From an uncultured Planctomycetota bacterium (GTDB lineage: Bacteria > Planctomycetota > Planctomycetia > Isosphaerales > Isosphaeraceae): a DNA stretch of 64,000 nucleotides. Each line of letters opens with the position of its first letter. Position 1 is the first letter of the stretch. Below the pieces are notes generated by a model that had not been told where the DNA came from, searched no databases, and worked only from the letters and a program-made list of their open reading frames with translations. The stretch covers positions 224,001 to 288,000 of the forward strand of contig CAWJTV010000028.1 of the NCBI GenBank assembly GCA_963845755.1. The letters are read 5' to 3'. Positions 5,118-63,834 of the stretch are shown piece after piece. The translations under genes were made by a program, and so were the position numbers.

Positions 5118-6488
5118 TCATCCCCGCGCGGAGATCAGGGTCAGCACCTCGTCCAGACAATCGACCAGGAAGTCCGCATCGTCGCTGGCCAGACACATCG
5201 GGGGCTTGATGCGCAGCGTGTTGCCGGCCAGTCCTCCTTTGCCGATGAGCAGGCCCCGCTCTTTGCATAGGTCCAGAACGTCGGCTGTCTCGGTTGAGGC
5301 GGGTTCCTTCGACTGGCGGTCGCGCACCAGCTCGACGCCCAGCATCAGGCCCATGCCGCGGACCTCGCCGATCAGCGACTGCCGTTCTTGAAGCTCCAGA
5401 AGTCGGTGCTTCAGATGCGTCCCAACGGTCAGGGCGTTCTGCTGAATGCCCTCACTGTCGATGACTTCGAGCGTCGCCAGCCCTTGCGTCATTGAGATCG
5501 GATTACCGCCGAACGTGTTGAAATGGACGCGATTCGTCATCGCACGCGCGATCTCCGGCCGGGTGATGCACGCGCCCAGAGGCGCCGCCGTTGCCGATCC
5601 CCTTGGCCATGGTGACGATGTCGGGAGTCACGCCCCAGTTCTCGAAACCCCAGAAGGCCGTCCCGGTCCGACCGAAACCGGTCTGGACCTCGTCGGCGAT
5701 GCAGAGGCCCCCGTGCTTGCGGATGATCTCGTAAACGATCTCGAAGTATTCGCGCGGCGGTGTGACCGTCCCACCCACGCCCTGAATCGGTTCGGCGATG
5801 AAGCAGGCGACCTCGCCGGGCGTCTCGTACCGGATCAGGTCCTCGACGTCCCGGCGCACTTCACGTCACAGCTCGGATACTCGAGGCCGAACGGGCATCG
5901 ATAGCAGTAGCCCGGTGTCGCGTGCTTGACGCCCACCGTCGGGTTCGACTTGAACCTCCAGTTCCCGTGCGCGGTCAGACCCATGGCCGCCTGCGTCCCG
6001 CCGTGGTAGCCGTTGCGGAGGCTGATAACATCCGCGTTGCCGGTGAACTCGCGCGACGAGAGGATCGCAATCTCGTTGGCCTCACTCCCGGAATTCGTGA
6101 AATAGCTGACCGACAGTCCGCTCGCCTCGGGCATGTGTTCGGCCAGCCTCTTGCCGAACTGGGCGATCGTGGGGTGCAGGTAGATCGTCGTGGTGTGCTG
6201 GAGCCGGCCGATCTGCTCGCGCACCTTCTCCACGACCCTGGGATGACAATGGCCGACCGAGACCGTGACAATCCCGGCAAACGCGTCGAGATACTGCTTA
6301 CCGGTCTCGTCCCAGACGTACTGCATGTGGCCCTCGGCGATCAGCAAGGGCTCGCGGTAATACGTGATGAGCCCAGGCGTGAGATATTCTCGGCGCATCG
6401 CGAGCACCTCCTCGCGCGAAGGGCCATCGTAGGGAGCGGGCGTGTGGGAGGAGATCGGAAGTCTTGTCTGTAGCGACTCCATCGACAT
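5118..6488 (-). CDS. Class III PLP aminotransferase, AGXT2/PYD4-like (probable beta-alanine aminotransferase); frame breaks near 5855 and 5584
   Basis: Three consecutive ORF pieces carry [43 protein letters not shown] and NTFGGNP/RIKPP. Confidence 0.85.
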
Positions 6489-23007: not shown

Positions 23008-23406
23008 ATGCGAGTCATCTCCAAGAAGCGATTGAGGCAATTCTGGGAGGTTCGAAAGTCCGATTCTGGGATCGCCGAACGGTACTTGTCCGCCTGGCAC
23101 GATACCGTCAAGAAAGTCGAGTGGGACAATTTCGCGTCGCTGAGGCAGACGTTTGGTTCGGCCGATCAGGTTGTCAACTGTGTCGTGTTCGACGTGGGGA
23201 ATAATCGCTTCCGGCTGATCGGCCGAATCAACTATGCCAAAGGCATCATTTACGTCTTGAAAGTGATGGACCACGCGGAGTACGACAAGCAGCTTTGGAT
23301 CGATCATTGTGGATGCCACGAACCTCCGCCGAAGAGGTCGGTCGCAGCGAAAATGACACCCCCAAAAGATAAGCCAACACCTCGCGGGCGGGAGGGAGGG
23401 ACATAA
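23008..23406 (+). CDS. higB: HigB family toxin (RelE-like mRNA interferase)
   Basis: MRVISKKRLRQFW, FGSADQV, VFDVGNNRFRLI, HAEYDK; toxin-first order. Confidence 0.88.
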   Translation: MRVISKKRLRQFWEVRKSDSGIAERYLSAWHDTVKKVEWDNFASLRQTFGSADQVVNCVVFDVGNNRFRLIGRINYAKGIIYVLKVMDHAEYDKQLWIDHCGCHEPPPKRSVAAKMTPPKDKPTPRGREGGT

Positions 23407-23409
23407 ACC

Positions 23410-23826
23410 ATGGCGAACAAGACCCGGACCAGGACTTTGCCTGACACTTATTTCGCGTTGGTGAAGCAGTTCCCACTGACCCACATCCAGAACGACGACC
23501 ACCTGGACGCGGCCATCACGATCATCGATCGATTGCTCCGGCAAGACCTCGACAAAGGGGCGGAGGAGTACCTGGATGCGCTGACCGATCTGGTCGAAAC
23601 ATACGAGGACAGGCACGTCGTGATCCCGGTCGCTTCCGAGGCAGACGTATTGCGCATGCTGATGGAGTCCAACCGGCTGAGTCAATCGAAGCTCGCGAGA
23701 GCCGTTGGGATCTCGCAGTCCACGATCTCGGCGGTGCTGAGGGGCAGTCGGTCGCTCACGAAGGAGCATGTGATCAAGCTCGCCCAGTTCTTTCACGTGT
23801 CTCCTGCCGCCTTTCTCCCGGTTTGA
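23410..23826 (+). CDS. higA: HigA family HTH antitoxin
   Basis: YLDALTDLVETYED and a C-terminal Xre HTH (LSQSKLARAVGISQSTISAVLRG). Confidence 0.88.
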   Translation: MANKTRTRTLPDTYFALVKQFPLTHIQNDDHLDAAITIIDRLLRQDLDKGAEEYLDALTDLVETYEDRHVVIPVASEADVLRMLMESNRLSQSKLARAVGISQSTISAVLRGSRSLTKEHVIKLAQFFHVSPAAFLPV

Positions 23827-23904
23827 AGATACGGCTTTCCTCGATGCCAGACGATCGCAGATCATAGGTGGAATCCGCATACGAAGTTGCACAAGAGGAT
23901 TGCC

Positions 23905-24777
23905 TCATCCTTCCACATTGTCCGCACAGTCGTGACAGTCCAGGTCGTTGCCGGATAGACGTTCAATGATCACATCGGTCAACTGGATTTCGATGCCGAT
24001 CCATCGGCGATTCTTGCGCTCGCAGACTGCGAACGTGGTCCCACTGCCGCCGAATGGATCGAGCACGACCTCGCCTTCGACCGTGCTCAGCTCCACCACG
24101 CGATCGAGGATCTTGGTCGAGAGGGCGTTGGCCTTGCGGTTTGGCGATTTGAACTTCCCGTGCCGCACGGGTGGGATGTCGGTCCAGACATCCATCAGGT
24201 TGACACCCAGGTCGTTCATCGCGTCGCGATGACCGCCGTAATCCTTGATCTCGCCCCCGCAATGGCGGCAGGTCTCGATCGGCGTGCGAATCTTGCGGAA
24301 CGTCTTCGGCTTCCCTTTTGTGTAGTAGAGCAGGCTGTAGTGGGCCGGATAGAGCCGGCCCGCGATCGGCAGGCCGAACTTGATGCTGACCGTGATCCAG
24401 TGCCGGAATTGCAGGCCCAACGTGTTGAGGTGATGCCCCAACTCGATGTTCCAGCGCGGGAGGTTATACAGGAACAATGCGCCGCCCGGCTTCAAGAGGC
24501 GGCAGCACTCGTTGATCCATCCGCGGCACCAGTCCAGATAGTCAACGTCCGTCCGCAGGTCGTTCACCCGCGCCCCGTATGCCTTGCCGAGATTGAAAGG
24601 CGGATCGGCGAAGACCGTGTTGACGCACTCATCGCGGAAATGCGGGAGCAGGCCGGAACAATCGCCGTGGAACAGTGCGCCCCGATCGGTGACGAAACGC
24701 GGGAGCAGGCTTCCGTTCGCGCGGAACGGGGAAAGGTCGAAAGCGCCGTTGGGGACGATTAGGCGACGTTGAGCCAT
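23905..24777 (-). CDS. Beta-class N4/N6 DNA methyltransferase, M.BamHI-like
   Basis: DPPF (motif IV) precedes DPFGGSGTT (motif I); RLYPAHYSLLYY, KDYGG, PPVRH recall the BamHI methyltransferase family. Confidence 0.85.
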   Translation of the reverse strand: MAQRRLIVPNGAFDLSPFRANGSLLPRFVTDRGALFHGDCSGLLPHFRDECVNTVFADPPFNLGKAYGARVNDLRTDVDYLDWCRGWINECCRLLKPGGALFLYNLPRWNIELGHHLNTLGLQFRHWITVSIKFGLPIAGRLYPAHYSLLYYTKGKPKTFRKIRTPIETCRHCGGEIKDYGGHRDAMNDLGVNLMDVWTDIPPVRHGKFKSPNRKANALSTKILDRVVELSTVEGEVVLDPFGGSGTTFAVCERKNRRWIGIEIQLTDVIIERLSGNDLDCHDCADNVEG

Positions 24778-24869
24778 CGGACGGTCCTGGAAACGGGGAA
24801 GACTGTGGGGTCGGGATCGCGTTCTGATACCGAGACGCGAAGCGCGGAGTGGGAGACGCACGACCATGG

Positions 24870-27800
24870 TCATCTTGCCGCCTCCTCCACGGTGAGGAAG
24901 ACCCGGAAGCGAGTGCCGTGACCGGGTTCGCTCTCGACCTCCAGGCGTCCGCCGTGGTCCTGGACCATGCCGTGGGTAATGCTCAGCCCCAGCCCGGTGC
25001 CGTCGCCGATCTCCTTGGTGGTGAAGAAGGGGTCGAAGATCTGGGGCAGGGCCTCGACGGGGATGCCGCAGCCGTTGTCCGCCACCTCGACGACGACGTC
25101 GCCATCCTCGGCCGAGGTGGTGATCGTGATCCGACCGTCGGCGCGATGGGTCACCTCGATGGCCTGGAGCGCGTTGACCAGCAGATTCAGGAAGACCTGA
25201 TTGAGCTGGGCGGGGGAGGCGACGACCCGCGGAATCTCACCGAAATCTTCCTCGATGGTGATGCCGCGGCGATCGAGCCGGCCGCGGATCATCTCGAGGG
25301 CGGTCCGGATCGCCTCGTGCACGTCGGCCTGGTCAACCGCGGCCTGGTCCAGCCGGGCGAAACCGCGGAGGTTCTGCACGATGTCGGCCACGCGCTTGAC
25401 GCCCTGGCGTGTGCTCTTGATGAGCTTGCCCAGGTTCTCTTTCACATAGGCCAGGTCGCATTCATCGGAGAGGGAGGCGACCTGCCGGATCAGCTCGGGC
25501 CGCGCGGCCTCCAGCTCGGCGTGACCCTGCTCGTAGAGTCCCTGGACGCCGAGCAGGAAGCGGACGTCGCGCTCGAGGACGGCCAGATTGTTGGCGATGT
25601 AGGCCAGGGGGTTGTTGATCTCGTGCGCGACGCCGGCCGAGAGCATCCCGAGCGAGGCCAGTTTCTCCGACTGGACGACGCGGGCGCGCATCTCATGGCG
25701 TTCGATGAACTGGCCGATCTGGCTGCCCAGGCTGGCCATCATGTCGAGGGTGGCACGGTCCACGGGCCGGACCTCGAGGCTGAGGAACTCGAGGACGCCG
25801 AGGCACTCGCCCCGGAGCAGGATCGGGAAGGCGAAGGCGGCGTGTAGGCCCTCTTCCGTCGCGGCGGGACGACGTGGGAGGTTGGGGTCATGGCGGATGT
25901 CGGGGATCCACGCCGGCTGGCCGAGGGTCCAGGCGCCGCCGGGGAGCCCGATGTCTGGCTTCAGGACGATCTCTCGCGTGATGGACTCGAATCGGGGAAA
26001 CGCGGCGCCCCGGCCGGTGCCAGAAGGTCGCGCACCGGAGCCGTTGCGCGTGGTGGTCCACCCTCCAGAACACGCCGAGGTTCCAGTCCAGGCTCCTGCA
26101 GATCGTCTCGAGGATCTTGGTCGCGGCCTGGCTGGGCGAGTCCGACTCGGCCAGGACGCGGGTAGTCTCGTACTGGGCCGACAGCCGTCGCTCGGCCTTC
26201 TTCCGCCGGGTGATGTCGTGGAAGACGACGACCCCGCCCTCGATCGCCCCACGTTCGTCGCGCAGCGGGCGGCCGGTGACCAGGATCCACGTCCCGTCGT
26301 CGCGGCTGGGATAAGCGATGTAGATCTCCACCTGGTCGGCCGATTCGCCGCGGATGGCCCGCATCAGCGGGATCTCTTCCGTGGGATAGGGAGTCACCCG
26401 GTCGGGGAGGAAGATCTCGTACTGCCGCGACCATTCTCCCGGCGGGCTGTCGACCCGCCCCTGGCCGAGGATCCGCTCGGCAGCCGGATTGAACACCAGG
26501 AACCGCGCCTGCGTATCGGCGACCACGACGCCATCGCCCATGCAGTCCAGGACCGACTGGAGGATGCGGGTCTGCTCGCGATAGGCGATCTCGGAGCGCG
26601 CCAGCTCCTGGGCGTGCTGCTCGAGGCTCTGGTTGAGCCGCCGGATCTCCTCGAGCTGTTCGAGTCCCGTCAGCGCCCGCGCCGTGTGCGAGGCCAGGGT
26701 CTCCAGAGGGCGCAAATCGAGGTGTTCGGGATCGATCGGCTGGCGCGTGGCCACCTGGAGCGTGCCGAGAATCTCGTCGCTGCCCAGCGGCACGATCACA
26801 TGTCCACGAATGCCCGATAAGGCGACGGTCGCCTGGTCGCACCGAGGATCGGTGGTGGAGTCGGGGATCACGATCGCACGATTCTCGCGGACCGCGATGG
26901 CCAGGATGTCGTCTCCCGCGAGCGAGCGCACGGTCATGTCGACGATTCCGGTCATGCTGCCGGTGGCCCGCACGGCGCGGATCACGCCCGCATCGCGGTC
27001 CACCAGCGCGATCATCGCCAGGTCGTATCCCAGGTCGGAGCAGAACCGCAGCACGCTATCAAATGTCTTGTCGATATTGTGCGGGTCCAACTGCGAGGTC
27101 GAGATGCGGAAGAAGGCGTCGAGCAGGTCGCGGAGGGCCTCCAGGGCGCGGGTGCGCTCCGAGATCCGCCACTCGAGCGTCGCATGCGAGCGCGCTAGCT
27201 CGTCGGTCATCCGGTTGAACGCCAGGCTGAGCTCGCCGATCTCGTCGGACGAATCGACGCGGCTCCGGGCGTTCAGATCGCCCGCGGTGACGGCGGCCGA
27301 GATCCGCGCCAGGTGCCGGATCGGCCGCGCGAACCGGCGGGCGATGGCGTTGGAGGCGGCCAGCCCCAGCAGCAGCAGGCCGCCGCCGAGCCCCAGCAGC
27401 AGCCAGCGAAGCCGCCTCACCGGCCGGTAAGCCTCCGCGGAGTCGATCTTGGCGATCAGGCCCCAGCCGGGATAAGGCGTGCCCAGCGGCCGGTAGGCGA
27501 CCAGCACGTCTCGACCGCGATAGTCGGTCGTCCGCCGGAACTGGAACTCCCCCGCGATCGCCGCATCCATCGAGGGAAATTGCTCGGGTGAGACCTCCGT
27601 CAGGCGCGATCCTTCGCGGGGTGGCAGCGGCAAATGGATCCGAGCGCCGCTCTTCCAGCCAATCAGGACCTCTCCGGTTTCTTCCAGGCCGTGCGGGTCG
27701 GAGAGGAACATCATGACCCTCCCGAGATCGACCACCAGCATCACGGTTCCGGCGACGTGATCCTCGCCATCCCGCACGACTCCGGCAAATGTCGCCCCAT

Positions 27801-30463: not shown

Positions 30464-32010
30464 TCACCTCCGCGGAGGGGGTTCGGGAAGGATGAGGTCC
30501 GTCCAGGCCATCGAGAGGGAAGTCGTGTTGTGGCCGTGGGGCGGGGCATGTCTGTGGGCTCGCGCACGGAGTCGAACATCGACGAGAGCCACCTGTCGCG
30601 TGGCCGCCGTGGGTTCGTTTTCCCCATTCCCGCGATCGTGAGGCGAGGCCGTCGGTTCGATTTGCCAATCGCGATGACTCCGGACCCAGGTACCGTAGAG
30701 TAGCAACAGTGTCGTCGCGGTGATCAGGGCCCGGAGAAACGGCAGGTTGCGTCGAGCGATTGCCCCAACCGCCGGGTCCGTGGGTTCGTTTTCTTCATTC
30801 GCGCGATCGACGGGCGGGTCGATGGGTTGGATCTGCGGATTCGCGCGATCGATGGGTGGGTCCTTGGGTTCGTTTTCTGCATCTCCGCGATCGACAGAGG
30901 GGTCGGCCGGATCGTTCTGCGGATTCCAGTCCTCGACCGGCGGGTTCATGGAACTCGGGACAGGGGATGCGTCATGACCTGAACGTGGCTTCGCACTCCG
31001 GCCGGATCGGCGGACTTTCATCAAGGTATCGAGGCTCCGGAATAGCGCTCGGCTGCACGAGAACTGGTAGCGGCGCAGCCGCTCGCCCTCGGTGCTGGTG
31101 TCGAACGACAGGAGGTCCGCTTGCCGGGCCACATCGGCCTCGGCGCACGGCGATGTCCGTCGACGAGCGGCTCCAGGCGCGCGATCGCCTGCTCGGCGAC
31201 GCTCCGCAACTCCTCGATCGTCGCCGCCTGGTCCTGCGCCAGTCCCTCGACCAACTGTCGGTCCAGCTTGCGGGCCAGGTACCCGTCGATCTCCGGGTGC
31301 GGGTTGGCCCGCCGGCGCTCGCAGTGGTTCTCCCATTCCTCGGCCGTCAGGTTCAGCGGCGGTTTCCCCAGCAGGCGGATCGCCCTGGACTTCTCGATCG
31401 ATGGCCAGGGCTGGCCCTGGTCGAGGAGGGTGCGGAGCTCGATCCAGCGGTCGAGCATCCACTGGCAGCCAGGACCGGTGGATTCGAGCCGGCGGACGAT
31501 GGCCCCGGCGTGATCGAGGACGTCGAGGGGCCGGGAGGTCTGGGACTTGCGGCCCGGGAGCAGGGCTTCGAGGATCTGGCTCTGAAGCTTGATGCTTCCC
31601 GATCCATTGCGATCGCTGAAAAGCCGACGGCCCAGCGCGGCGGCCTCTTCCTGCTGACGGTTCGCCTCCGCCACCGGCAGCGTTTCGATGATGTGGGAGA
31701 GCCGGGCGACCTCGGCGCGATCGGCCCGATCCAGCTTCCAGGAGGACTGCACGGCCTGCTCGACCAGGAACTGCTCGACCTCGTTCTGAGGCTGGAGGTT
31801 GCCGATCCAGGAGTCGAGCCGCTCTTGAAGCGCGTCGGGATCCTCGCCGGGCAAGACGAGAGTCCTGGCGGTCATGCCGTGCTTGACGGCGTTGAACCGG
31901 GAGCGGTTTTTGCCCTCGGGGGTCCGAGGTCCGGTGCTCTTCTGGGCATTGCGGCGGTTGATCTCGGCCCGATCGAGCTTGGGCGGAGTCGCGGTCGTGG
32001 TCATGGTCAT
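30464..32010 (-). CDS. Hypothetical protein with NRRNAQKSTGPRTPEGK...KHG N-terminus and NEP-repeat tail; frame break near 31145
   Basis: Two ORF pieces (31021..32187 and 30464..31462) join at a GCGC; helical body, 14-aa repeats, one hydrophobic helix. Confidence 0.7.
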
Positions 32011-32311
32011 GGATGTATGCCCCGGGAGTGGATGCCGTGGCGGTCGTCCTCGGCGGGAGATCGGTTCGACGGCGCCGCGCCGCCGGTTACCCATACGATC
32101 CGCACATGCGCACTCCCAGTTGCATAAAAGTTTCTGCATGTCAGGGGTTTTTGACGAGGCATCGCCGGAGTCCCTGCCGCAACCCATAACGTGGCAAACC
32201 GTTACATCGAGGGGCCAAAGAGCAGGAGATGCTTAAAAAAACCCGGGCGGGTGACAAAGCTGGCGGGAACCGTCCCTTGAGGGCTTGCCGGGCCGGTGTA
32301 TGTCCGTCTGA

Positions 32312-42416: not shown

Positions 42417-43419
42417 TCAGGAGACATCGATTCGAGGCTCGCCGCGTCCGGATGCCGTTTCACTTCGTCGAACGATATACGACGGCCGCTGCTTGGATTC
42501 GAGGAAGATGAGCCGGAGGTATTCGCCGATGACGCCGAGGCTCATGAGCTGGACGGCCCCCATGAACAGGACGACGATCATCGTGGAAGCCCAACCCTGG
42601 GGTGCAGTGTGATGATGGATCGCGTCATTGAGCACCCAGACGGTCAAGCCCATCGCCAGACAGGAAGCGGCGACGCCGAGGTAGGTGACGAGTCTCAGCA
42701 GGTGCGCCGCTGAAGCTGACCAGACCGTCGATCGCCAATCCCATTAGTTTGTTCAGCGTGTATTTCGGATGGCCTGCTTCCCGGGCCGGTCGATCGTAGG
42801 AGACGCCCACCTGGCGAAAGCCGAGGAAACTCCGAAGGCCCCGCACGAACCGGCAACGCTCGGGTAGCCGGTTGAGCGCATCGACAACGCGCCGGTCCAT
42901 CAGGCAGAAATCGCCGCTATCCCGCGGGATCTCCAGGTCGCTGATACGGCCCAGGAGACGATAGAAGGCCTGGTATGCGAGCCGCTTGAGGGGTCCTTCC
43001 GCGCGGCTGCGCCGGACGGCATAAACGACGTCCGCCCCGTCGCGCCACCGGCGAACCAGTTCGGGAATCAGCTCGGGAGGGTCTTGCAGGTCGCCATCCA
43101 TGACGATGACGGCCCGACCCCGGGCGTGCTCCAGGCCCGCCGAGATCGCCGCCTGATGACCAAAATTGCGGCTCAGGTGCACCACGACCACGCGCATGTC
43201 CTGTGCGTGCAACGCATCGATCATGCGCGGGGTTTCATCCGTGCTCCCATCGTTGACGAACACGATCTCGAACGGCGAACCCGAGGCTTCCAGGACTGCG
43301 TGCAGCCGATGCCAGAGCGCGGGGACGTTGTCCTCCTCGTTAAACACGGGGATGACGACGCTGAGCAGGCCAGATACGCGGAGGCGTCGGGGCTCCGAGA
43401 AATGGGGTGATTGAACCAC
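42417..43419 (-). CDS. GT2 polyprenol-phosphate glycosyltransferase (GtrB-like); frame break near 42705
   Basis: PVFNEE, NDGSTD, SRNFGHQ, MDGDLQDPP, two C-terminal TM segments with GEYL. Confidence 0.88.
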
Positions 43420-53586: not shown

Positions 53587-55417
<1,831 letters not shown>

Positions 55418-55603
55418 AGGTTCTCGGACGGTCTTGGTTCGGGCAGGCCGGTATGGATCTTCCATCGAGGACGTGCCATAAAGGCGAGCTTCATCGCGGT
55501 TCTTCGAAGTCGGTTAATCATATCCGTCACCCCCCCCATGGACAAGGCCGGTCGACACGGCACCATGCACGATGGCACGCACTCACCCGGACATTCGATG
55601 CAG

Positions 55604-57017
55604 CTACAGGAGTGGGGAGAGGAGCCGCACGACATTCTCGGCGATCTCGCGCGGCCAACCGGATTGCGGCAACTCACGCTGGGAATGGGCCATCAGCCCC
55701 CGCGCCCAGGTTGCGATCTCCTCGACCTGCGATCGCGACCAGACGAAGAGCGCCAACTCGTAGTTGAGGAACAAGCTGCGCATGTCCATGTTGGCCGAGC
55801 CGATGACCGCGAGCTCCTCGTCGAAGATGACGACCTTGGCATGGATCATGACCGGTGAATAGAGCATCACCTTCCCGCCCTCGTTATGCAAATCGCGGAG
55901 ATAGCTGGCACGGGCGAGATCCGCCGAGATATGGTTCGAGCGCGCGGGTACGATCAGCCGGACGTCGACCCCACGACGAGCGGCGAGGTTGAGGGCGCGC
56001 GCGAGCATCTCATCGGGCACGAAGTAGGGAGTAACCACCCAGATCCGCTTGCTGGCCGCGAAGATCAAGGCCAGCAAGGATTCATAGAGGGGATCGCCGG
56101 CAACATCGGGACCACTCGCCACCACCTGGACGGTCGCCGTCGCGCCGGTCGGATCGTCCTGGTTGTCGACGGCGGGCGCCGGTTCCGGCTCCGGCCCCGA
56201 TCCCTTGGCGAACGACCAATCCGAGGTGAACACGGCCTCCAGGTCGGAGACCGCCGGTCCTTCCACCACGGCCGCGATGTCGCGCCAGAGGTCACAGCAT
56301 GCCGGTGGCCCCATGTACGGCCAGGCCAGGTTCATGCCGCCGGTCAGCGCGATCCGGCCGTCCACGACGAGGAGCTTCCGATGGTTCCTCAGATTCGCCC
56401 GCCCCCGGAAGGGAACGTGGAGCACCGGCATGAAGAAGGCCACCTGCGCCGGCCTCGATCAGGGGGGCCAGTACGCGACGGCGGAGACGCCACGATCCGA
56501 GATCGTCGATCAAGAGCCGCACCACGATCCCCTCGGACACCCGCTCGGTCAGTCGTCCCAGGATCGAACGGCTGCCCTCGTCGTTGCCGAGGATGTAGGT
56601 GGTGATGTGGATCGTCGATCGTGCTTCATCGATCAGCCGGATCACGCGCTGATAGGCATCGACCCCGTCCAGCACGACCTCGACGCAATTCCCCGCGCGG
56701 GCCGGCGGTACGCCGTACGACGCCAGCAGGCGCTCGATCCCGTCCTCGCTCGACGGCACTCCCGCCTCGGGCGATGGGCTGTAAATCCGGGCCTTCCTCC
56801 GCGCCATCGGATTCATCTTCCGGCCCCCGAGCATCACATACAGGGGCACCCCGACGTAGGGCAGCAACAAGATGATCAGGAGCCAGGCGATTGTGCTGCT
56901 GGGAGAGCGCTTCTGCCGGAACAGATTCGCCAGGAAGACCAGGGCCAGCAGGAATCCCAGGTGGGTCAAGAGCTCGGAGGAGATCCAGGAGTATCCCGCG
57001 TTGATCCAGCTAGGCAC
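55604..57017 (-). CDS. cls: Cardiolipin synthase (phospholipase D family); frame break near 56447
   Basis: PLDc_N TM segments, RNHRKLLVVDG, TPYFVPD, HAKVVIFD-GSANMD. Confidence 0.88.
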
Positions 57018-58434: not shown

Positions 58435-60222
58435 TCAAGGAGACGCAGGGAGGCGCCGGATGGTGACGTCGAGCGGCCCGGCGGTCGCGCGATTGCCCTC
58501 GACCCAGGCTTCGAAGCGGCCCGTCCCCGCGGTGAAAGGGACGTCCCGGAAGGTGCACTCGGACGCCTCGCGATCGAGCTTCAGCTCGCGTTCCACGCCC
58601 CGAATTGTCAGGTGCACAACCGTCGGGAAGCGTCGGGGCGTGAGGCGCAGGGACACGTCGAACCGGCCGTCACGGACCACCACGACCTCCCAGTGGCCCA
58701 GGTCATTGACGCCCCAGCCGGAGCGAGGTCCGCGCCAATCCTGACGCGTCAGGATGGTCGGGTTTTCCCGATCGCCGCCGATGGCGATGCGGATCGGCCC
58801 GAACCCGCGCGACGAGGAGACGTCCTTGAACCAGTCCAGGTACTCCGCGTGCATTTTCTCGACAATCTGGGGCACTTTCGCGGCGAGATCATGCTCCTGC
58901 CAGGGGTCGCTCTCCATCTCGTAGAGCTCCAGCGGGGGGACCTTGAGATTGCCGAGCGGGGGCTCGCGGCGCAGGAGCGAATACTTCTGAGAACGCGCGG
59001 CGAACGCGCGATCGGGCTGGGGCTGGTCTCCGCGATGCCACTGGAAGAAAAGCGTACGGTCGGGCCAGGCGACTTCCGGCGCCCCGCTCAGGAGCGGCAT
59101 GAGGCTCCGGCCATCGAAACGGAGGCCGGCCGGCGGCGAGACGCCGCAGGCCTCCAGCAAGGTCGGGGCGATGTCGATATGGGCGGCGATCCGATCGACG
59201 ACCCGTCCCGCCGGGAAATGGCCGGGCCAGCGGATGTAGCAGGGGACGTGGATCCCTCCCTCGTAGACCGTCCCCTTCCAGCCGCGGAGGCCCGCGTTGA
59301 AACGAACGTTGGCCGGGCCGTTATCGGTGAGGAAAATGACGATCGTGTCTCGAGCCAGCCCACGCGCCTCGAGGGCGGAGAGGACTCGGCCCACGTTCGA
59401 GTCGATGTTCGTGATCATCGCGTACACCTTGGCGATCGCCTCAGTGGGGCTGATCGACGAGGCGGGGATCGGCCGGCCGAGTTGCGGAAACTCGCCGGGC
59501 GCGAGGCTGACCGAGCGATAGGACTCCAGCTCGGCCTTGGGGGCCTCCAGCGGTTCGTGGGGGCAGTTGAACGCCAGGTAGGCGAAGAAGGGGCGGTCGC
59601 TGGGCGTGCCCAGGAACTCCATGGCCGCGGTGGTGTAGACGTCGCTGCAATAACCCTGGCACTTCTGCGACTGGCCATTGTGTTGCAACACCGGGTCGTG
59701 ATAGTGACTGCCGCCCGGCGGGTCGGACGCCTGACCGATGCCGCCGCCTCGGATGACCAGCGCCTCCTGGAAACCCTGATCGATAGCTCGCAACGGCGCA
59801 TTATCGCCCAGGTGCCATTTGCCGAAGATCCCGGTCCGATAGCCGGCCGCCGCGAGCATCTCGGCGAGCGTCTGCTCATCCGGGTGCATCAACGAGCGAC
59901 CCGCGTAAGTATCCACGACGCCGGTGCGGTAGTTATACCGACCGGTCATCAGGCTGGCCCGGGTCAGAGAGCAGACGGGCGAGACGTAAAACGACTTGAG
60001 CCGCACGCTCTCGCGGGCAAATCCATCCAGGTGCGGAGTCCGGATCTTGGGATTGCCGTGGAATCCCAGGTCGCCGTAGCCCTGATCGTCGGTCATGATC
60101 AGAAGGATGTTGGGACCGCTCGCGGTCGTCGCCCCCTTCGCACTCGCGCCGATCGTCGAGAGCGATAGACACGCAATGCATGTGAGCCGCTCGAGGCGCC
60201 CACGAATCCCGGTGCCAAGCAC
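58435..60222 (-). CDS. Arylsulfatase (family S1)
   Basis: PNILLIMTDDQGYGD, CSLTRASLMTGRY, GKWHLG, TDNG, KGTVYEGG. Confidence 0.9.
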   Translation of the reverse strand: MLGTGIRGRLERLTCIACLSLSTIGASAKGATTASGPNILLIMTDDQGYGDLGFHGNPKIRTPHLDGFARESVRLKSFYVSPVCSLTRASLMTGRYNYRTGVVDTYAGRSLMHPDEQTLAEMLAAAGYRTGIFGKWHLGDNAPLRAIDQGFQEALVIRGGGIGQASDPPGGSHYHDPVLQHNGQSQKCQGYCSDVYTTAAMEFLGTPSDRPFFAYLAFNCPHEPLEAPKAELESYRSVSLAPGEFPQLGRPIPASSISPTEAIAKVYAMITNIDSNVGRVLSALEARGLARDTIVIFLTDNGPANVRFNAGLRGWKGTVYEGGIHVPCYIRWPGHFPAGRVVDRIAAHIDIAPTLLEACGVSPPAGLRFDGRSLMPLLSGAPEVAWPDRTLFFQWHRGDQPQPDRAFAARSQKYSLLRREPPLGNLKVPPLELYEMESDPWQEHDLAAKVPQIVEKMHAEYLDWFKDVSSSRGFGPIRIAIGGDRENPTILTRQDWRGPRSGWGVNDLGHWEVVVVRDGRFDVSLRLTPRRFPTVVHLTIRGVERELKLDREASECTFRDVPFTAGTGRFEAWVEGNRATAGPLDVTIRRLPASP

Positions 60223-60570
60223 GGTGCTTCTCCCCTCTGCGAAACTCAAAGAGATCGTCCCGAGCGTCACGATTACCTCGGCTGGAGGATCTCCCATGAT
60301 ACGACGCGCGCGGCGACTGACGGTATCCGTCTCCCCTCAACGGTCAAGTCGTCGTCCACGACGGGCCGCCGGACTCCTCCCGGAATGCCCCGAGACCCCG
60401 GGCGGGAACGCGATGGAGGGGTTCGCAATCCCCCGGCGAAATTTTTTTGCGGAAATTTTTATGTCCTGATCTTGTCAAGAGTTGCATCGAGAGATTGTCG
60501 TCATTCGGCGCTAGTTGCATTAACGCTTTTGGAAAGTTGCGGCATCCTGAGAATAGAGCCCACCTCCGTC

Positions 60571-60668
60571 AGAGTCTTCCTCGGCAGGATCCCTGCGCGT
60601 CGGTGCGTCCTGGGGATCCGTGATTTCGGGTTTATCGCTATTGGGTTGCGGCCGAAGGCCGCGTGAGG
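60571..60668. repeat. Internally deleted copy of the 156-bp element (reverse orientation)
   Basis: Keeps both ends (AGAGTCTTCCTC..AGGATCCCTGCGC..TGGGGAT and ATTGGGTTGCGGCCGAAGGCCGCGT.AGG); lacks the central heptamer palindrome. Confidence 0.8.
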
Positions 60669-60677
60669 AGCAGCAAA

Positions 60678-62081
60678 GTGCGCCAGGCCCTTGAACGCTT
60701 CCGGGCGCGGATCGCCCGGATCGAAGAGGAACCGATCCTGTCAGACCAGTCCGGTGATGTCGCGAGCTTCGATTGGTACGGCGAATCTTGCCCGTGCGGC
60801 CTGCCGCCGGGGGAGTGCCGGGTGCATCCCCGCGCGCGGCTCTCCCAGCGGCCGCCGGCCGGCGACTGGCGAACCTTGCTGGTCCTGGCCGGCCGCGGCT
60901 GGGGGAAGACGCGCGCCGGCGCCGAGTGGGTCCGCAGCCTGGCGGAGTCGCGCCAGGCTCGACGGATCGCCCTGGTGGCGTTGACCGCCTCCGATGCCCG
61001 CGACGTCATGATCGAGGGAGAATCCGGCATCCTCGCGATCAGTCCGCCGTGGTGCCGGCCGACCTATGAACCGTCCCGGCGGCGGTTGACCTGGCCCGGC
61101 GGAACGATCGCCACGACCTATTCCGCGGATGAGCCCGAAAGGTTGAGAGGCCCCCAACATGAGGCGGCCTGGGTCGACGAGGTCGCGTCCTGGCGCAAGC
61201 CTCAGGCCTGGGACAACCTGATGTTCGGACTGCGGCTCGGGGTGAATCCGCGTGTCTGTGTCACGACGACCCCCAAACCCGTTCGACTGATCAAGGCCCT
61301 GCTGGCCGATCCCATGACGGTCCTCGTCAGGGGCTCGACGCATGAGAACCGGCCGAACCTGGCGCCGGAGTTCTTCGAGAGAATCGTGGCCACCTACGAA
61401 GGGACGCGCCTGGGCCAGCAGGAGATCTATGCCGAGATTCTGGACGTCAGCGATGGCGCCTGGTTCACCGGGTTCAACGTTGCCAGGCACGTCACCGAGA
61501 AGGCCGAGTACGATTACCGATTCCCCGTGCACCTCGCCATCGACTGCGGCGTCTCCCGGCACGTCGGCGCCGTGTTCTTCCAGGTCCGCGAGATCGGGCC
61601 CAATAAGCATCGCGTCACCGTCTTCGGCGACTACCACGCTCAGGGGCTGGTCTCCGAGGCGAACGCCAGGCGGATCAAGGCGCGCGCCGAGGAACTGCCG
61701 TGCCGCGGTCAGATCCACACGGTCCGCCTCGACCCGGCCGCGAGCGCACGCACCGGCATCGGCCCGGCGGCCTACGGTGAGTTCGAGCGCATCTTCGGCT
61801 CGCGGATCACGGAGCGGTGGCCGAGCCACCGGGTGGTCGACGGCCTCGATCAGATCGAGATCCTGCTCGATACGGACTGTTTGCTCATCCATCCGCGCTG
61901 CATCGCTTTGAAAACGGCCTTCCAGAACTATGCCCGCGCCCAGCGCGGCGGCGAGTGGCTGGACGAGCCGGCGCAAGAGCACCCCCACGAGGACCTGATG
62001 GACGCGCTCCGGGGCGGCATCCGCGACAGGTTCCCCGGCGGCCGGATCGAGCAACCCAGCTTTCGTACCGTCCGCTTCTAA
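60678..62081 (+). CDS. Phage/GTA-type terminase large subunit, orphan (alternative start 60663)
   Basis: Walker A AGRGWGKT, LRGPQ, Walker B WVDE, coupling motif TTTP, RNase H-like AIDCG...EDLMDALR; GAGGAG 7 nt before GTG. Confidence 0.9.
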   Translation: MRQALERFRARIARIEEEPILSDQSGDVASFDWYGESCPCGLPPGECRVHPRARLSQRPPAGDWRTLLVLAGRGWGKTRAGAEWVRSLAESRQARRIALVALTASDARDVMIEGESGILAISPPWCRPTYEPSRRRLTWPGGTIATTYSADEPERLRGPQHEAAWVDEVASWRKPQAWDNLMFGLRLGVNPRVCVTTTPKPVRLIKALLADPMTVLVRGSTHENRPNLAPEFFERIVATYEGTRLGQQEIYAEILDVSDGAWFTGFNVARHVTEKAEYDYRFPVHLAIDCGVSRHVGAVFFQVREIGPNKHRVTVFGDYHAQGLVSEANARRIKARAEELPCRGQIHTVRLDPAASARTGIGPAAYGEFERIFGSRITERWPSHRVVDGLDQIEILLDTDCLLIHPRCIALKTAFQNYARAQRGGEWLDEPAQEHPHEDLMDALRGGIRDRFPGGRIEQPSFRTVRF

Positions 62082-62112
62082 GAGCGCCTAAAACGACCCG
62101 GACCCTCACAGT

Positions 62113-62437
62113 TCTTGACCCTTTTCCCTTGAGGAGTTAAACCACGAAATACACGAAATACACAGGGTGAAGGAGATGGAGAGCCGATTCTCGATTATTT
62201 TAAGTTTCGTTTTTTTCGAGACTGTAGCAACGGAACCGGGCTCAGGAAGGAAGGCCTCGTCCTCACACCATCGGGATCCTCGTTCCCATGCTCTGCGTGG
62301 GAACGTCCGGGTGCGACGCTCCGCGTCGCCGGGGCCGCAGAGCGGCCAAGACGGCATTCCCACGCAGGAGCGTGGGAACGAGTTCCTATCACCCGGTCTC
62401 GTTGCTAGAGACTCTTTTTTTCGTGTAATTCGTGGTT
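62113..62437. repeat. Nested palindromic repeat complex
   Basis: Three concentric inverted pairs: 62140/62437, 62224/62407, 62279/62382. Confidence 0.8.
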
Positions 62438-62440
62438 AGA

Positions 62441-62596
62441 GTAGAATCTTCCTCCGTAGGATCCCTGCGCCCTCCGCGCCTCTGGGGATTCCGAATTCCG
62501 GATTCGCGATTCCGGATTCCCGGATCCTTCCCCTTCGGGAATCCGGAATCGCGAATCCGGAATCCCGATTGGGTTGCGGCCGAAGGCCGCGTTAGG
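62441..62596. repeat. 156-bp structured dispersed element, full copy (reverse orientation)
   Basis: Reverse complement near-identical to 32312..32467. Confidence 0.9.
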
Positions 62597-62679
62597 AGTT
62601 CAAGGGACCAGCCGGCCCGACTATGATGGGGTAATGGACTCGGGCGGGCCTCATCCCGGTAAAGTGTGAGCTTCTTCTG

Positions 62680-63834
62680 ATGAATGCCTTCGTCCGCATC
62701 ATAACCTCGGAGGGCCGCGGCGCGATCGCGGTCGTGCGCGTATGGGGAGAGCGAGCGGTTGCGGTCGTGGATGCCGTCTTCCGGCCATCGCGGGGAAACT
62801 CGCTGGCGGAAACGCCGCCAGGCCGGTTGCGGCTGGGACGATCGGGGCTCGGCCGGGGCGACGAAGTCGTCGCCGTGCGGATCCCCGCTGTGACACCGAC
62901 CGTGGAAATTCAGACTCACGGAGGGACCGCGGCTGTCCGATCGGTCGTTTCGGCCCTTGAGGCGGCGGGGGCGCTGACCTGGACCGGCAGCGAGTCGGGG
63001 TCGAAGTCGTCCGATGATCCGATCGCCGCCCAGGCCCTCGTCGACCTGCCCCAGGCGCCGACCTTGCGCACCGCAGAGATCCTGCTGGATCAGGCGCAAG
63101 GCGTTCTTCGGGGAGAGCTGGACCGGCTGCGCCTCGAAATGCAACTTGGGACAGGATCGACCCTGGCCAGACTCGACGCGCTGATCGGCCGAGCGGATGT
63201 CGGTCTGAGGCTGATCGACGGATGGAAAGTTGTCATCGCGGGCCGGCCTAATGTCGGAAAGAGCCGGTTGTTCAACGCATTGGCCGGCTTCGCGCGGGCG
63301 ATCGTTGACCCGACGCCGGGCGTGACGCGGGACATCGTGACCTTCCGAACCGCCGTGGACGGCTGGCCCGTGGAACTTGCGGACACGGCGGGACTCCGCG
63401 GGACCGATGATGCCATCGAGCGCATGGGGGTCGCGCGCGCTCGACGCCAACAACAAGAGGCGGACCTTGTCCTCCTGGTCCTCGACCGATCCGAGTCCCT
63501 CCAGCCGATGGATCGCGAGTTGATCGGATCGAACGCACGCGCCCTGTTGGTGGCGAACAAGTCCGACCTGCCCCCTGCCTGGGATTCGTCCGAGGACTGC
63601 GCGGGGTTCCCCGCCATCGCGATGGTCTCGGCCGAGTGCGGCACGGGGGTCTCGGGGTTGGTCGCCACGATCGCCGAACGGCTCGTGCCCAACCCTCCCT
63701 CTCCCGGAGAGCCCGTGCCGTTCCGAGCCGATCACCTGAGGGACCTGGAAGCGGCTCGTGCCTGTCTGTCGGCCGGGAATCGTGCCGGTGCTGAGAGTTG
63801 GCTGGCGGCGATCGGAGGCGCCGTACCGCGGTGA
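62680..63834 (+). CDS. mnmE: tRNA modification GTPase MnmE/TrmE-like, short form
   Basis: GRGAIAVVR, EIQTHGG, GRPNVGKS, GVTRD, DTAGLR, NKSD. Confidence 0.8.
   Translation: MNAFVRIITSEGRGAIAVVRVWGERAVAVVDAVFRPSRGNSLAETPPGRLRLGRSGLGRGDEVVAVRIPAVTPTVEIQTHGGTAAVRSVVSALEAAGALTWTGSESGSKSSDDPIAAQALVDLPQAPTLRTAEILLDQAQGVLRGELDRLRLEMQLGTGSTLARLDALIGRADVGLRLIDGWKVVIAGRPNVGKSRLFNALAGFARAIVDPTPGVTRDIVTFRTAVDGWPVELADTAGLRGTDDAIERMGVARARRQQQEADLVLLVLDRSESLQPMDRELIGSNARALLVANKSDLPPAWDSSEDCAGFPAIAMVSAECGTGVSGLVATIAERLVPNPPSPGEPVPFRADHLRDLEAARACLSAGNRAGAESWLAAIGGAVPR

Follow-up and report, generated by a model that had tools for sequence, protein, structure and literature searches.

An orphan terminase gene between two host genes

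We analysed a 64,000-nucleotide (nt) stretch of the genome of an uncultured planctomycete of the family Isosphaeraceae (assembly GCA_963845755.1, contig CAWJTV010000028.1, positions 224,001 to 288,000; hereafter the window), and within it a gene for a phage-type large terminase subunit (TerL) that stands alone among host genes. The source assembly (G000; other G numbers denote related genomes and C numbers contigs) comprises 14.27 Mb in 49 contigs with about 64% guanine plus cytosine (GC), and the window corresponds to C28:224001-288000 on a contig of 445,813 bp. The TerL protein of the window is referred to as P0001. The features on which the analysis centers are as follows.

58435 to 60297, minus strand: sulfatase gene, the left host flank, adjacent to mnmE in G001, G015 and G064
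60533 to 60550, plus strand: 18-nt core of a promoter-like motif, inside a conserved block of about 45 nt (about 60508 to 60560) and about 130 nt before the TerL start
60663 to 62081, plus strand: TerL gene, 472 codons from the first GTG, recognized by Pfam, PHROG, profile and AlphaFold/Foldseek comparisons
60678, plus strand: likely TerL start codon (GTG), with a GAGGAG at 60665 to 60670 that ends 7 nt upstream
62680 to 63834, plus strand: mnmE (TrmE GTPase) gene, the right host flank, identified by Pfam

The initial annotation of this DNA, made by a model from the letters and their open reading frames (ORFs), had placed an intact orphan TerL between a sulfatase gene and mnmE, and this position was confirmed. 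A gene for a sulfatase maturase of the formylglycine-generating enzyme (FGE) type precedes the sulfatase gene. Likewise, none of the 58 predicted window proteins matched a portal, capsid, tail, integrase or small terminase subunit (TerS) family in PHROG at E≤1e-5, no defence genes were seen beside TerL among these same proteins, and no tRNA was found in the 50 to 64 kb portion of the window. A tblastx comparison of both TerL flanks with 12 other TerL loci yielded no convincing phage remnants beside the gene (best E about 1e-4, away from the TerL neighbours).

The gene encodes a predicted ATPase joined to a nuclease

The TerL ORF runs from 60663 to 62081 without a stop or frame break. P0001 matched Pfam Terminase_6N (PF03237) at E 1.9e-24, and the PHROG TerL family phrog_2 aligned to its residues 63-461; Pfam Terminase_6C gave no match at E≤0.01, and an NCBIfam search returned no family. 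The AlphaFold model (predicted local distance difference test score 88.3) resembled whole large terminases in Foldseek searches, including those of D6E (1.8e-18), T4 (gp17), Sf6 (gp2) and HK97. Isolated domains were matched as well: the nuclease domains of P22 (template modelling, or TM, score 0.74) and of SPP1 G2P (0.68-0.71), and the ATPase domain of P74-26 (TM 0.63).

Two domains could be delimited, an ATPase domain at about residues 58-270 and an RNase H-like nuclease domain at about residues 280-460. A profile built from 53 family members aligned with the T4 gp17 ATPase at E 6.3e-5, with the Walker A and B motifs of both paired. Across the 53 sequences, ATPase residues G81, K82, D172 and E173 were invariant, as in an N-terminal ATPase of the additional strand, catalytic glutamate (ASCE) class, and so were the acidic residues D294, D357, D444 and D447, as in an RNase H-like nuclease. 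The four ATPase motifs quoted in the initial annotation lie at residues 77-89, 115-122, 161-165 and 247-251 and are conserved throughout the family, and its description of an unbroken gene with both domains held up in ORF, Pfam, PHROG and fold comparisons. Judged by sequence and predicted structure, the window TerL derives from a phage large terminase and unites a packaging ATPase with an RNase H-like nuclease.

Gain of TerL between sulfatase and mnmE in the source lineage

Relatives carry the same two host genes side by side with no TerL between them. In G001, which belongs to the same genus, sulfatase and mnmE are adjacent and the aligned ends lie 966 bp apart, versus 2322 bp in the window; the corresponding distance between aligned ends is 797 bp in G015 (2553 bp in the window) and 817 bp in G064 (2577 bp in the window). 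These alignments show a gain of TerL in the sulfatase/mnmE intergenic region in the source lineage.

The closest relative of the gene, 81% identical, lies elsewhere, on G064:C4 (locus L048, 8466-11170), and its flanks match other G000 contigs. This copy is broken at the Walker A region by an insert of about 1.3 kb, which reads in frame as a 423-amino-acid ORF without a Pfam match, and a TGA interrupts it further along; upstream of it lie two TerS-like ORFs. The ratio of non-synonymous to synonymous substitution rates (dN/dS) between P0001 and this copy, 0.30, was not used because the copy is frame-shifted and the alignment imperfect. More distant copies occur on G001:C2 (67% identical, amid small ORFs of unknown kind) and on G000:C37 (60-72% identical, with frame changes and a TGA).

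One genome holds a terminase next to the same host gene. At G045:C13:149165-153292 (L112), a TerS-TerL pair of a different lineage, with its TerL 54% identical to the window TerL and an integrase two genes away, is found in opposite orientation next to the orthologous sulfatase and FGE genes. The sulfatase/mnmE junction is also a break in synteny in G061, G048 and G051, and this intergenic region may be a hot spot of insertion or rearrangement.

TerL shows signs of retention

Conservation within the family was assessed at 107 alignment columns conserved in at least 95% of 91 other members. P0001 deviates at none of them, compared with a family median of 1 and a mean of 2.8. Short contigs from soil sequencing runs match parts of TerL exactly, and run X2 contains a variant about 97.5% identical to it, which no contig ties to the window locus. 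The 13 differences of this variant comprise 9 synonymous and 4 non-synonymous changes, corresponding to a ratio of non-synonymous to synonymous polymorphism (pN/pS) of 0.15 and a binomial P of 0.0011 against neutrality. The mnmE contigs of the same run diverge about as much as the TerL contigs, which fits a sister strain, the pieces being unlinked by contigs. Orphan TerL paralogs within single genomes gave dN/dS values of 0.11-0.19. Neutral evolution of TerL, which the initial annotation had listed among the findings that would refute it, does not fit the absence of deviations and the preponderance of synonymous changes in the X2 variant.

The flanking repeats look incidental to TerL

The DNA on either side of TerL consists almost wholly of repeats of at least five kinds, among them the promoter-like block listed above and the following.

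60571 to 60670, plus strand: hairpin repeat, truncated copy, with the 5' module and the 3' short hairpin present and the long hairpin missing
62443 to 62598, plus strand: hairpin repeat, complete copy, with a long hairpin (33-nt arms, 62490 to 62568) and a short hairpin
62072 to 62218: member of a short repeat family of about 145 bp and about 7 copies, directly after the TerL stop codon
62213 to 62415: element of about 200 bp resembling miniature inverted-repeat transposable elements (MITEs), with copies 99.0-99.5% identical on C11 (two), C41 and C31
62140 to 62165 and 62412 to 62437: inverted arms within the repeat block 62072 to 62437

The two hairpin copies lie 1.77 kb apart in the same orientation, and the upstream copy ends in the GAGGAG that precedes the likely TerL start, both as first described; this 3' end overlaps the first GTG. 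The downstream copy ends about 80 nt before the start of mnmE. The repeat unit, about 150 bp long and intergenic, combines a long hairpin with a short GC hairpin and often forms tandem arrays with a period of about 150 bp; arrays of 3-5 copies lie at C39:359803-360386, C47:125802-126228 and C20:1219-1515 of G000. A 25-nt core of the unit matched four times in the window and never in shuffled sequence, so the repeat itself is real. In the whole of G000 this core has 34 exact matches, 141 at ≤2 mismatches and 194 at ≤4, while an nhmmer profile gave 737 hits that merged into 387 loci, 263 of which include the 3' core.

Several comparisons separate the repeat from the terminase. Genome-wide, 7 pairs of copies lie 1-3 kb apart (5 in the same orientation), versus 9.3 expected from a Poisson spread of the 263 loci. 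The remaining four TerL-related loci of G000 have no copy up to 60 kb away, and nhmmer found nothing at 17 loci of paralogs and relatives, the empty sites of G001 and G015 (L044 and L041) among them; the enrichment beside TerL copies that the initial annotation proposed to test for is absent from the loci searched. Orientation relative to neighbouring genes is unbiased (103 versus 105 for downstream genes and 112 versus 94 for upstream genes, among 217 units). A general role of the repeat as a donor of ribosome-binding sites was rejected on the same grounds, and a start codon lies between -60 and +30 nt of the repeat end in only 20 of the 103 same-strand cases. Since the repeat has neither an orientation bias nor an association with TerL, the GAGGAG that feeds TerL appears to be a local accident with no built-in role. 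Contigs from four soil DNA runs contained no joints that skip TerL, all of them being short and none spanning either junction.

Given the abundance of the repeat, the bracketing of TerL is not unusual, and the repeats look incidental to the gene. The suggestion that the hairpin element mobilizes a terminase cassette or serves as its recognition site is disfavoured by the pair counts, the lack of copies near other TerL loci and the balanced orientations. In its length, hairpin formation, intergenic location, hundreds of copies and partly tandem arrangement, the element resembles repetitive extragenic palindromic (REP) sequences, bacterial interspersed mosaic elements or MITEs; no Rfam family matches it at gathering score, and only sub-threshold miRNA-like matches were obtained on the long hairpin. 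It is a common intergenic element without a special tie to TerL, and a false lead is removed with it. The near-identical copies of the MITE-like element on C11, C41 and C31 suggest recent movement. Evidently, non-essential DNA around the TerL insert gathered small mobile repeats.

A promoter-like motif precedes TerL

The 18-nt motif core upstream of TerL occurs at 78 sites in G000 at ≤2 mismatches, with the next gene on the same strand at 51 and on the opposite strand at 23. Four of the 51 same-strand units are packaging or head genes: the window TerL, a TerS-like ORF on C26, a TerS-TerL pair on C11 and the operon of a head module. By a rough estimate, assuming about 11,000 genes, far fewer than one motif hit before a packaging gene would be expected by chance. 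The motif also precedes the TerS of G064:C5 and is present at the head of the G015 cluster, and a repeat family with about 20 near-identical members carries it in part. Other genes that follow it encode UvrB, RecO, a DinB-family protein, DndE, several extracytoplasmic function (ECF) sigma factors and enzymes of central metabolism; a dedicated packaging regulon was ruled out by this diversity of host genes. A sigma-70 consensus scan of the locus found no promoter-like sites and one terminator-like site (62395-62413). The motif makes transcription of TerL likely and carries the argument no further.

TerL belongs to a family of orphan modules in related giant genomes

At least 7999 proteins match P0001 at E≤1e-20, some of them with inteins; the best full-length match among those listed is 74% identical. 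The two domains differ in their relationships. The ATPase domain (residues 58-270) is 56-68% identical to that of TerLs from Alphaproteobacteria, Chloroflexi and other phyla, including Cyanobacteria, and 55-59% identical to that of cultured phage TerLs. Of 54 loci, 7 were re-checked for additional matching pieces (six from other phyla and one from a Planctomycetota metagenome-assembled genome); in these 7 the match was limited to residues 51-303, and no phage record covers 80% of P0001. A second planctomycete TerL type has the nuclease domain in common with P0001 (43-51% identity, residues 263-470), and in a comparison of loci L049-L101 this domain was detectably similar only to planctomycete TerLs. 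From these alignments the window TerL looks like a mosaic. A single alphaproteobacterial locus (L063) was inspected, and it proved to be a prophage encoding a DUF4055 portal, a P22-type coat protein and a tail tube.

Within the same bacterial family, P0001 was matched in 17 of 24 genomes, and the multi-copy type occurs in ten further large genomes, with up to 16 matching pieces in G060. Copies outside G000 were counted as intact if they formed a single piece of at least 415 residues without a stop; there were 16, of which 15 were assessable (one lies on a 2.9-kb contig). A portal gene adjoined one of these 15 (G015:C107) and lay 6.3 kb away from another (G051:C2), and for the other 13 no phrog_145-type portal was present on the same contig within 100 kb. 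Similarly, at 13 fetched TerL loci no gene up to four positions away matched a portal or capsid PHROG; directly upstream of TerL, 8 of the 13 had a TerS gene (phrog_2538).

Clustering of the proteins encoded at 21 loci placed a TerS-like family in 12 and a second small-protein family in 4; apart from these, only generic host families recur, along with integrases at 3 loci. In 4 of the 21 related loci (L107, L108, L112 and L030), an integrase or recombinase gene is close to TerL. The neighbours of these modules are host genes, among them those for an amidohydrolase, a glutathione peroxidase, an agmatine deiminase-type enzyme and EF-Tu. The TerL loci have no common neighbourhood, except for G045 and the window, and at blastn sensitivity no shared non-coding ends were found between copies; homology stops at the coding sequences. 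By these comparisons, the window TerL is a member of a family of orphan TerS-TerL or TerL modules lying among host genes of related giant planctomycete genomes, and the window copy is a variant without TerS.

Possible packaging partners in the source genome

The search of the whole genome for portal, capsid and further TerL genes that the initial annotation proposed revealed a single head module and four other TerL-related loci; portal and capsid have one match each, both on C11. Apart from the degraded copy on C37 described above, these are as follows.

C11:141900 to 150200 (L036, 9889 to 18177): head module, in the order 80-amino-acid gene, TerL fragment, portal, scaffold, SU10-type capsid protein and weak head-closure match
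C11:108922 to 111667 (L032, 8923 to 11667), minus strand: TerS and an intein-bearing TerL, with an HNH-type intein after the Walker B region
C4:66871 to 68397 (L033, 18447 to 19973), minus strand: intact TerL of the second ('C4-type') kind, beside D-serine dehydratase-like and M20 peptidase genes

In the head module, TerL is reduced to a fragment (C11:142318). Synteny links the module and its flanks to G015:C107, in which the portal follows an intact TerL. Among 60 other genomes of the family, 44 have this type of portal, mostly as a single copy; in many genera it directly follows a C4-type TerL, and in the large-genome clade it mostly lacks an adjacent TerL. In a comparison of G000 with G015, the portal had a dN/dS of 0.17 and the capsid protein one of 0.19. 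Domestication of a head module could explain the C11 locus, as could a prophage that uses one shared attachment site.

The intein-bearing TerL, flanked by efflux-pump and permease genes, has one frameshift within the intein as assembled. The C4-type TerL is syntenic with one on G001:C21 (L034, 9516-11063; 93% identical, dN/dS 0.14); it lacks a downstream portal in both species, and both contigs end just upstream of TerL. TerS matches in G000 are confined to C11 and C26.

Other features of the window

Four host genes of the window appear split into adjacent ORFs (5118-6488, 42417-43419, 53587-55465 and 55604-57017). They encode an aminotransferase, a GtrB-type glycosyltransferase, a translation-factor GTPase and a phrog_17878-type protein. 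As such splits are either assembly indels or true pseudogenes, caution is warranted with pseudogene calls in G000 that depend on a single frameshift. At 23008-24873, a small phrog_5734 protein and a helix-turn-helix regulator lie next to a DNA methyltransferase; this group may be a toxin-antitoxin or restriction-modification remnant unrelated to TerL. The initial annotation had also suggested that TerL works with a protein encoded at 30.5-32 kb. The ORF at 31021-32187 matched no Pfam or PHROG family, and nothing ties it to TerL.

Discussion

The explanation that we prefer takes its start from the identity and fold of TerL, its orphan state, its gain at the site, its lack of decay and its independence of the hairpin repeat; expression and packaging in trans are the steps that we infer. 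A phage-type TerL would have entered the sulfatase/mnmE intergenic region, where it stands alone without TerS, portal, capsid or integrase, and would have been kept as a working gene. It would probably be transcribed from the host-type promoter-like repeat and translated with the help of a Shine-Dalgarno sequence that came by chance from the adjacent hairpin repeat, while REP/MITE-like elements would have colonized the non-essential DNA around the insert, neither moving TerL nor acting as its target. The terminase would then act in trans, cutting DNA and pumping it into phage-type proheads, for which the candidates are the portal-scaffold-capsid module on C11 or the heads of infecting or resident phages. 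We give such a retained, probably expressed orphan terminase acting in trans an even chance of being correct.

A number of observations weigh against this explanation. Terminases normally need TerS to start packaging, and no TerS adjoins the window TerL. P0001 shares only 60-61% protein identity with the portal-linked TerL of G015, compared with 78% between the portals, and the C11 TerS-TerL pair is nearer to the TerL of the G015 cluster (73-78% nucleotide identity). P0001 is therefore no obvious displaced partner of the head module; on sequence similarity it is one of three candidate TerLs for that module, and not the best. The module itself may be decaying: the portal has stops or frame changes in several relatives, and G001 (87% completeness) has no portal match. 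Because the promoter-like motif stands before many unrelated host genes, it is better regarded as a common promoter type than as the mark of a dedicated regulon. The figures for retention fit constraint, the source of which may be the host, the phage before capture, or phage copies in the soil samples. Finally, a 437-amino-acid antisense ORF overlaps TerL, which indicates that long ORFs can persist by chance in DNA of 65% GC.

This last point bears directly on the simplest alternative, that TerL is an inert relic, the last survivor of a decayed prophage or captured phage fragment, and is intact only through recency and the rarity of stops in GC-rich DNA. Decay has overtaken other members of the family, including the C37 copy and the C11:142318 fragment of G000 and the 81% relative in G064 with its 1.3-kb insert and TGA, and the 58 window proteins include no TerS, portal or integrase. 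Against a relic stand the agreement of P0001 with the family at all 107 conserved sites and the near-identical soil variant with 9 synonymous and 4 non-synonymous changes; the tblastx searches found no remnants of other phage genes in its flanks, and TerL has acquired a new Shine-Dalgarno sequence and a promoter-like motif. In addition, several apparently split host genes suggest that indels, genuine or introduced in assembly, are frequent in this DNA, but TerL remains unbroken. We consider an inert relic unlikely on balance, though a serious competitor. Less probable is a selfish or satellite-type module, in which TerS-TerL pairs are mobile, either as the remains of satellites or as terminases that behave like homing nucleases, and the window copy has lost its TerS. 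The family is multi-copy, with as many as 16 pieces in G060, copies alike at about the 80% level occupy unrelated positions in separate genomes, L107, L108, L112 and L030 have integrase or recombinase genes nearby, and in G045 a different TerS-TerL lineage has settled beside the same sulfatase ortholog. On the other hand, homology ends at the coding sequences with no shared ends or flanks found, recombinases are absent at most loci, and the window copy has neither a recombinase nor TerS.

Three further alternatives fare worse. A host might keep a terminase subunit that poisons or misdirects the packaging of related infecting phages, since packaging interference by satellite-encoded proteins is an established principle, and both the signs of retention and the solitary position of TerL among host genes are compatible with such a use. 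Yet none of six proteins tested, P0001 included, matched a PADLOC family at E≤0.01, no defence genes lie beside TerL, and a literature search on orphan, stand-alone and domesticated terminases, not directed at decoys or interference, offered no experimental precedent for a TerL decoy; we regard this use as quite improbable. Even less can be said for a repeat-mobilized cassette, in which the direct hairpin copies bound a mobile unit or serve as recognition sites of the terminase. The two copies do bracket TerL in the same orientation, the upstream one abutting the start codon. Against this stand the unremarkable number of close pairs, the absence of copies from the other TerL loci searched and from the empty sites of G001 and G015, the lack of orientation bias and the differing structure of the two copies, the upstream one having no long hairpin; the soil contigs, too short to decide the matter, show no joints that skip TerL. 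An equally faint prospect, or one fainter still, is that the TerL segment was joined into the locus during assembly through the repeats on both sides. Repeated DNA borders the TerL coding sequence for at least 245 bp on one side and at least 530 bp on the other, and no public contig bridges either junction, but a 445,813-bp contig in a 49-contig assembly suggests that repeats were spanned, the repeats are connected with the host genes through unique sequence at 60298-60427 and 62600-62680, and the two hairpin copies differ in structure.

The retained terminase can be set against several known systems. It shares with the large terminases of tailed phages (T4 gp17, D6E, Sf6 gp2 and HK97) a two-domain build, Walker A and B motifs, acidic nuclease residues and the overall fold. 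It differs from them in standing alone in the chromosome, outside any head module and without TerS, portal or capsid, and in a nuclease domain with detectable similarity only to planctomycete proteins. Cryptic prophage remnants likewise present an isolated phage gene among host genes, and sister copies in G000 and relatives are broken, but the flanks here contain no phage remnants, integrase, tRNA or attachment site, the conserved residues are all kept, and the orphan TerS-TerL arrangement recurs in many genomes. Phage-inducible chromosomal islands (PICIs) and their capsid-forming variants (cf-PICIs) are chromosomal elements that keep terminase genes without a full phage. Phage satellites carry integrase, replication and regulatory genes, and cf-PICIs capsid genes as well; the window copy has none of these, and a recombinase is near only 4 of 21 related loci. 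Unlike repeat-bounded mobile cassettes, homologous TerLs and empty sites have no copy of the repeat at their borders (0 of 17 loci), and unlike the defence systems in PADLOC, P0001 and five related proteins match no model.

Gene transfer agents (GTAs) of the Rhodobacter capsulatus type (RcGTA) deserve separate mention because the initial annotation named a dispersed, GTA-like packaging system among the possible roles; its likening of the ATPase motifs to the GTA-type terminase group is not supported. As in RcGTA, phage-derived head and packaging genes reside in the chromosome, with the portal module in 44 of 60 genomes and evolving at a dN/dS of 0.17-0.19. The TerL gene of RcGTA forms part of a single head-tail cluster, where it neighbours the portal, and its chromosomal position is stably inherited. 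In contrast, the window TerL is unlinked, multi-copy and without an adjacent TerS; its site is empty in G001, G015 and G064, its closest copies occupy other loci, and no tail genes were identified here. Of the original proposal, the intact, stand-alone TerL with its signs of retention stands, and a head module lacking an intact TerL leaves room for dispersed packaging; the hairpin as recognition site is not supported. In its specific form, a family-wide portal-scaffold-capsid module would have lost its adjacent terminase in this clade and be served in trans by unlinked, multi-copy TerS and TerL genes under purifying selection, the window TerL among them and driven by the same promoter type as the head module. 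We rate such a system as a long shot, on a level with the selfish module.

Taken by itself, the locus holds an orphan phage gene, a familiar kind of thing. Less ordinary is the recurrence of intact terminases, usually as TerS-TerL pairs, that lie dispersed among the host genes of numerous relatives with 8-16 Mb genomes and evolve under constraint, together with a head-gene module that is widespread in the family and often without its own terminase in the large genomes. We found no mention in the literature of orphan, stand-alone or domesticated terminases, and the portions available to us of the literature joining Planctomycetes, terminases and GTAs contain nothing on such genes. If the parts work together, they would constitute the first GTA-like or packaging-in-trans system proposed for Planctomycetota, one in which the terminase is unlinked from the capsid genes. 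If they do not, the family still offers a clear setting in which to study why terminase genes persist after the remainder of a phage has gone.

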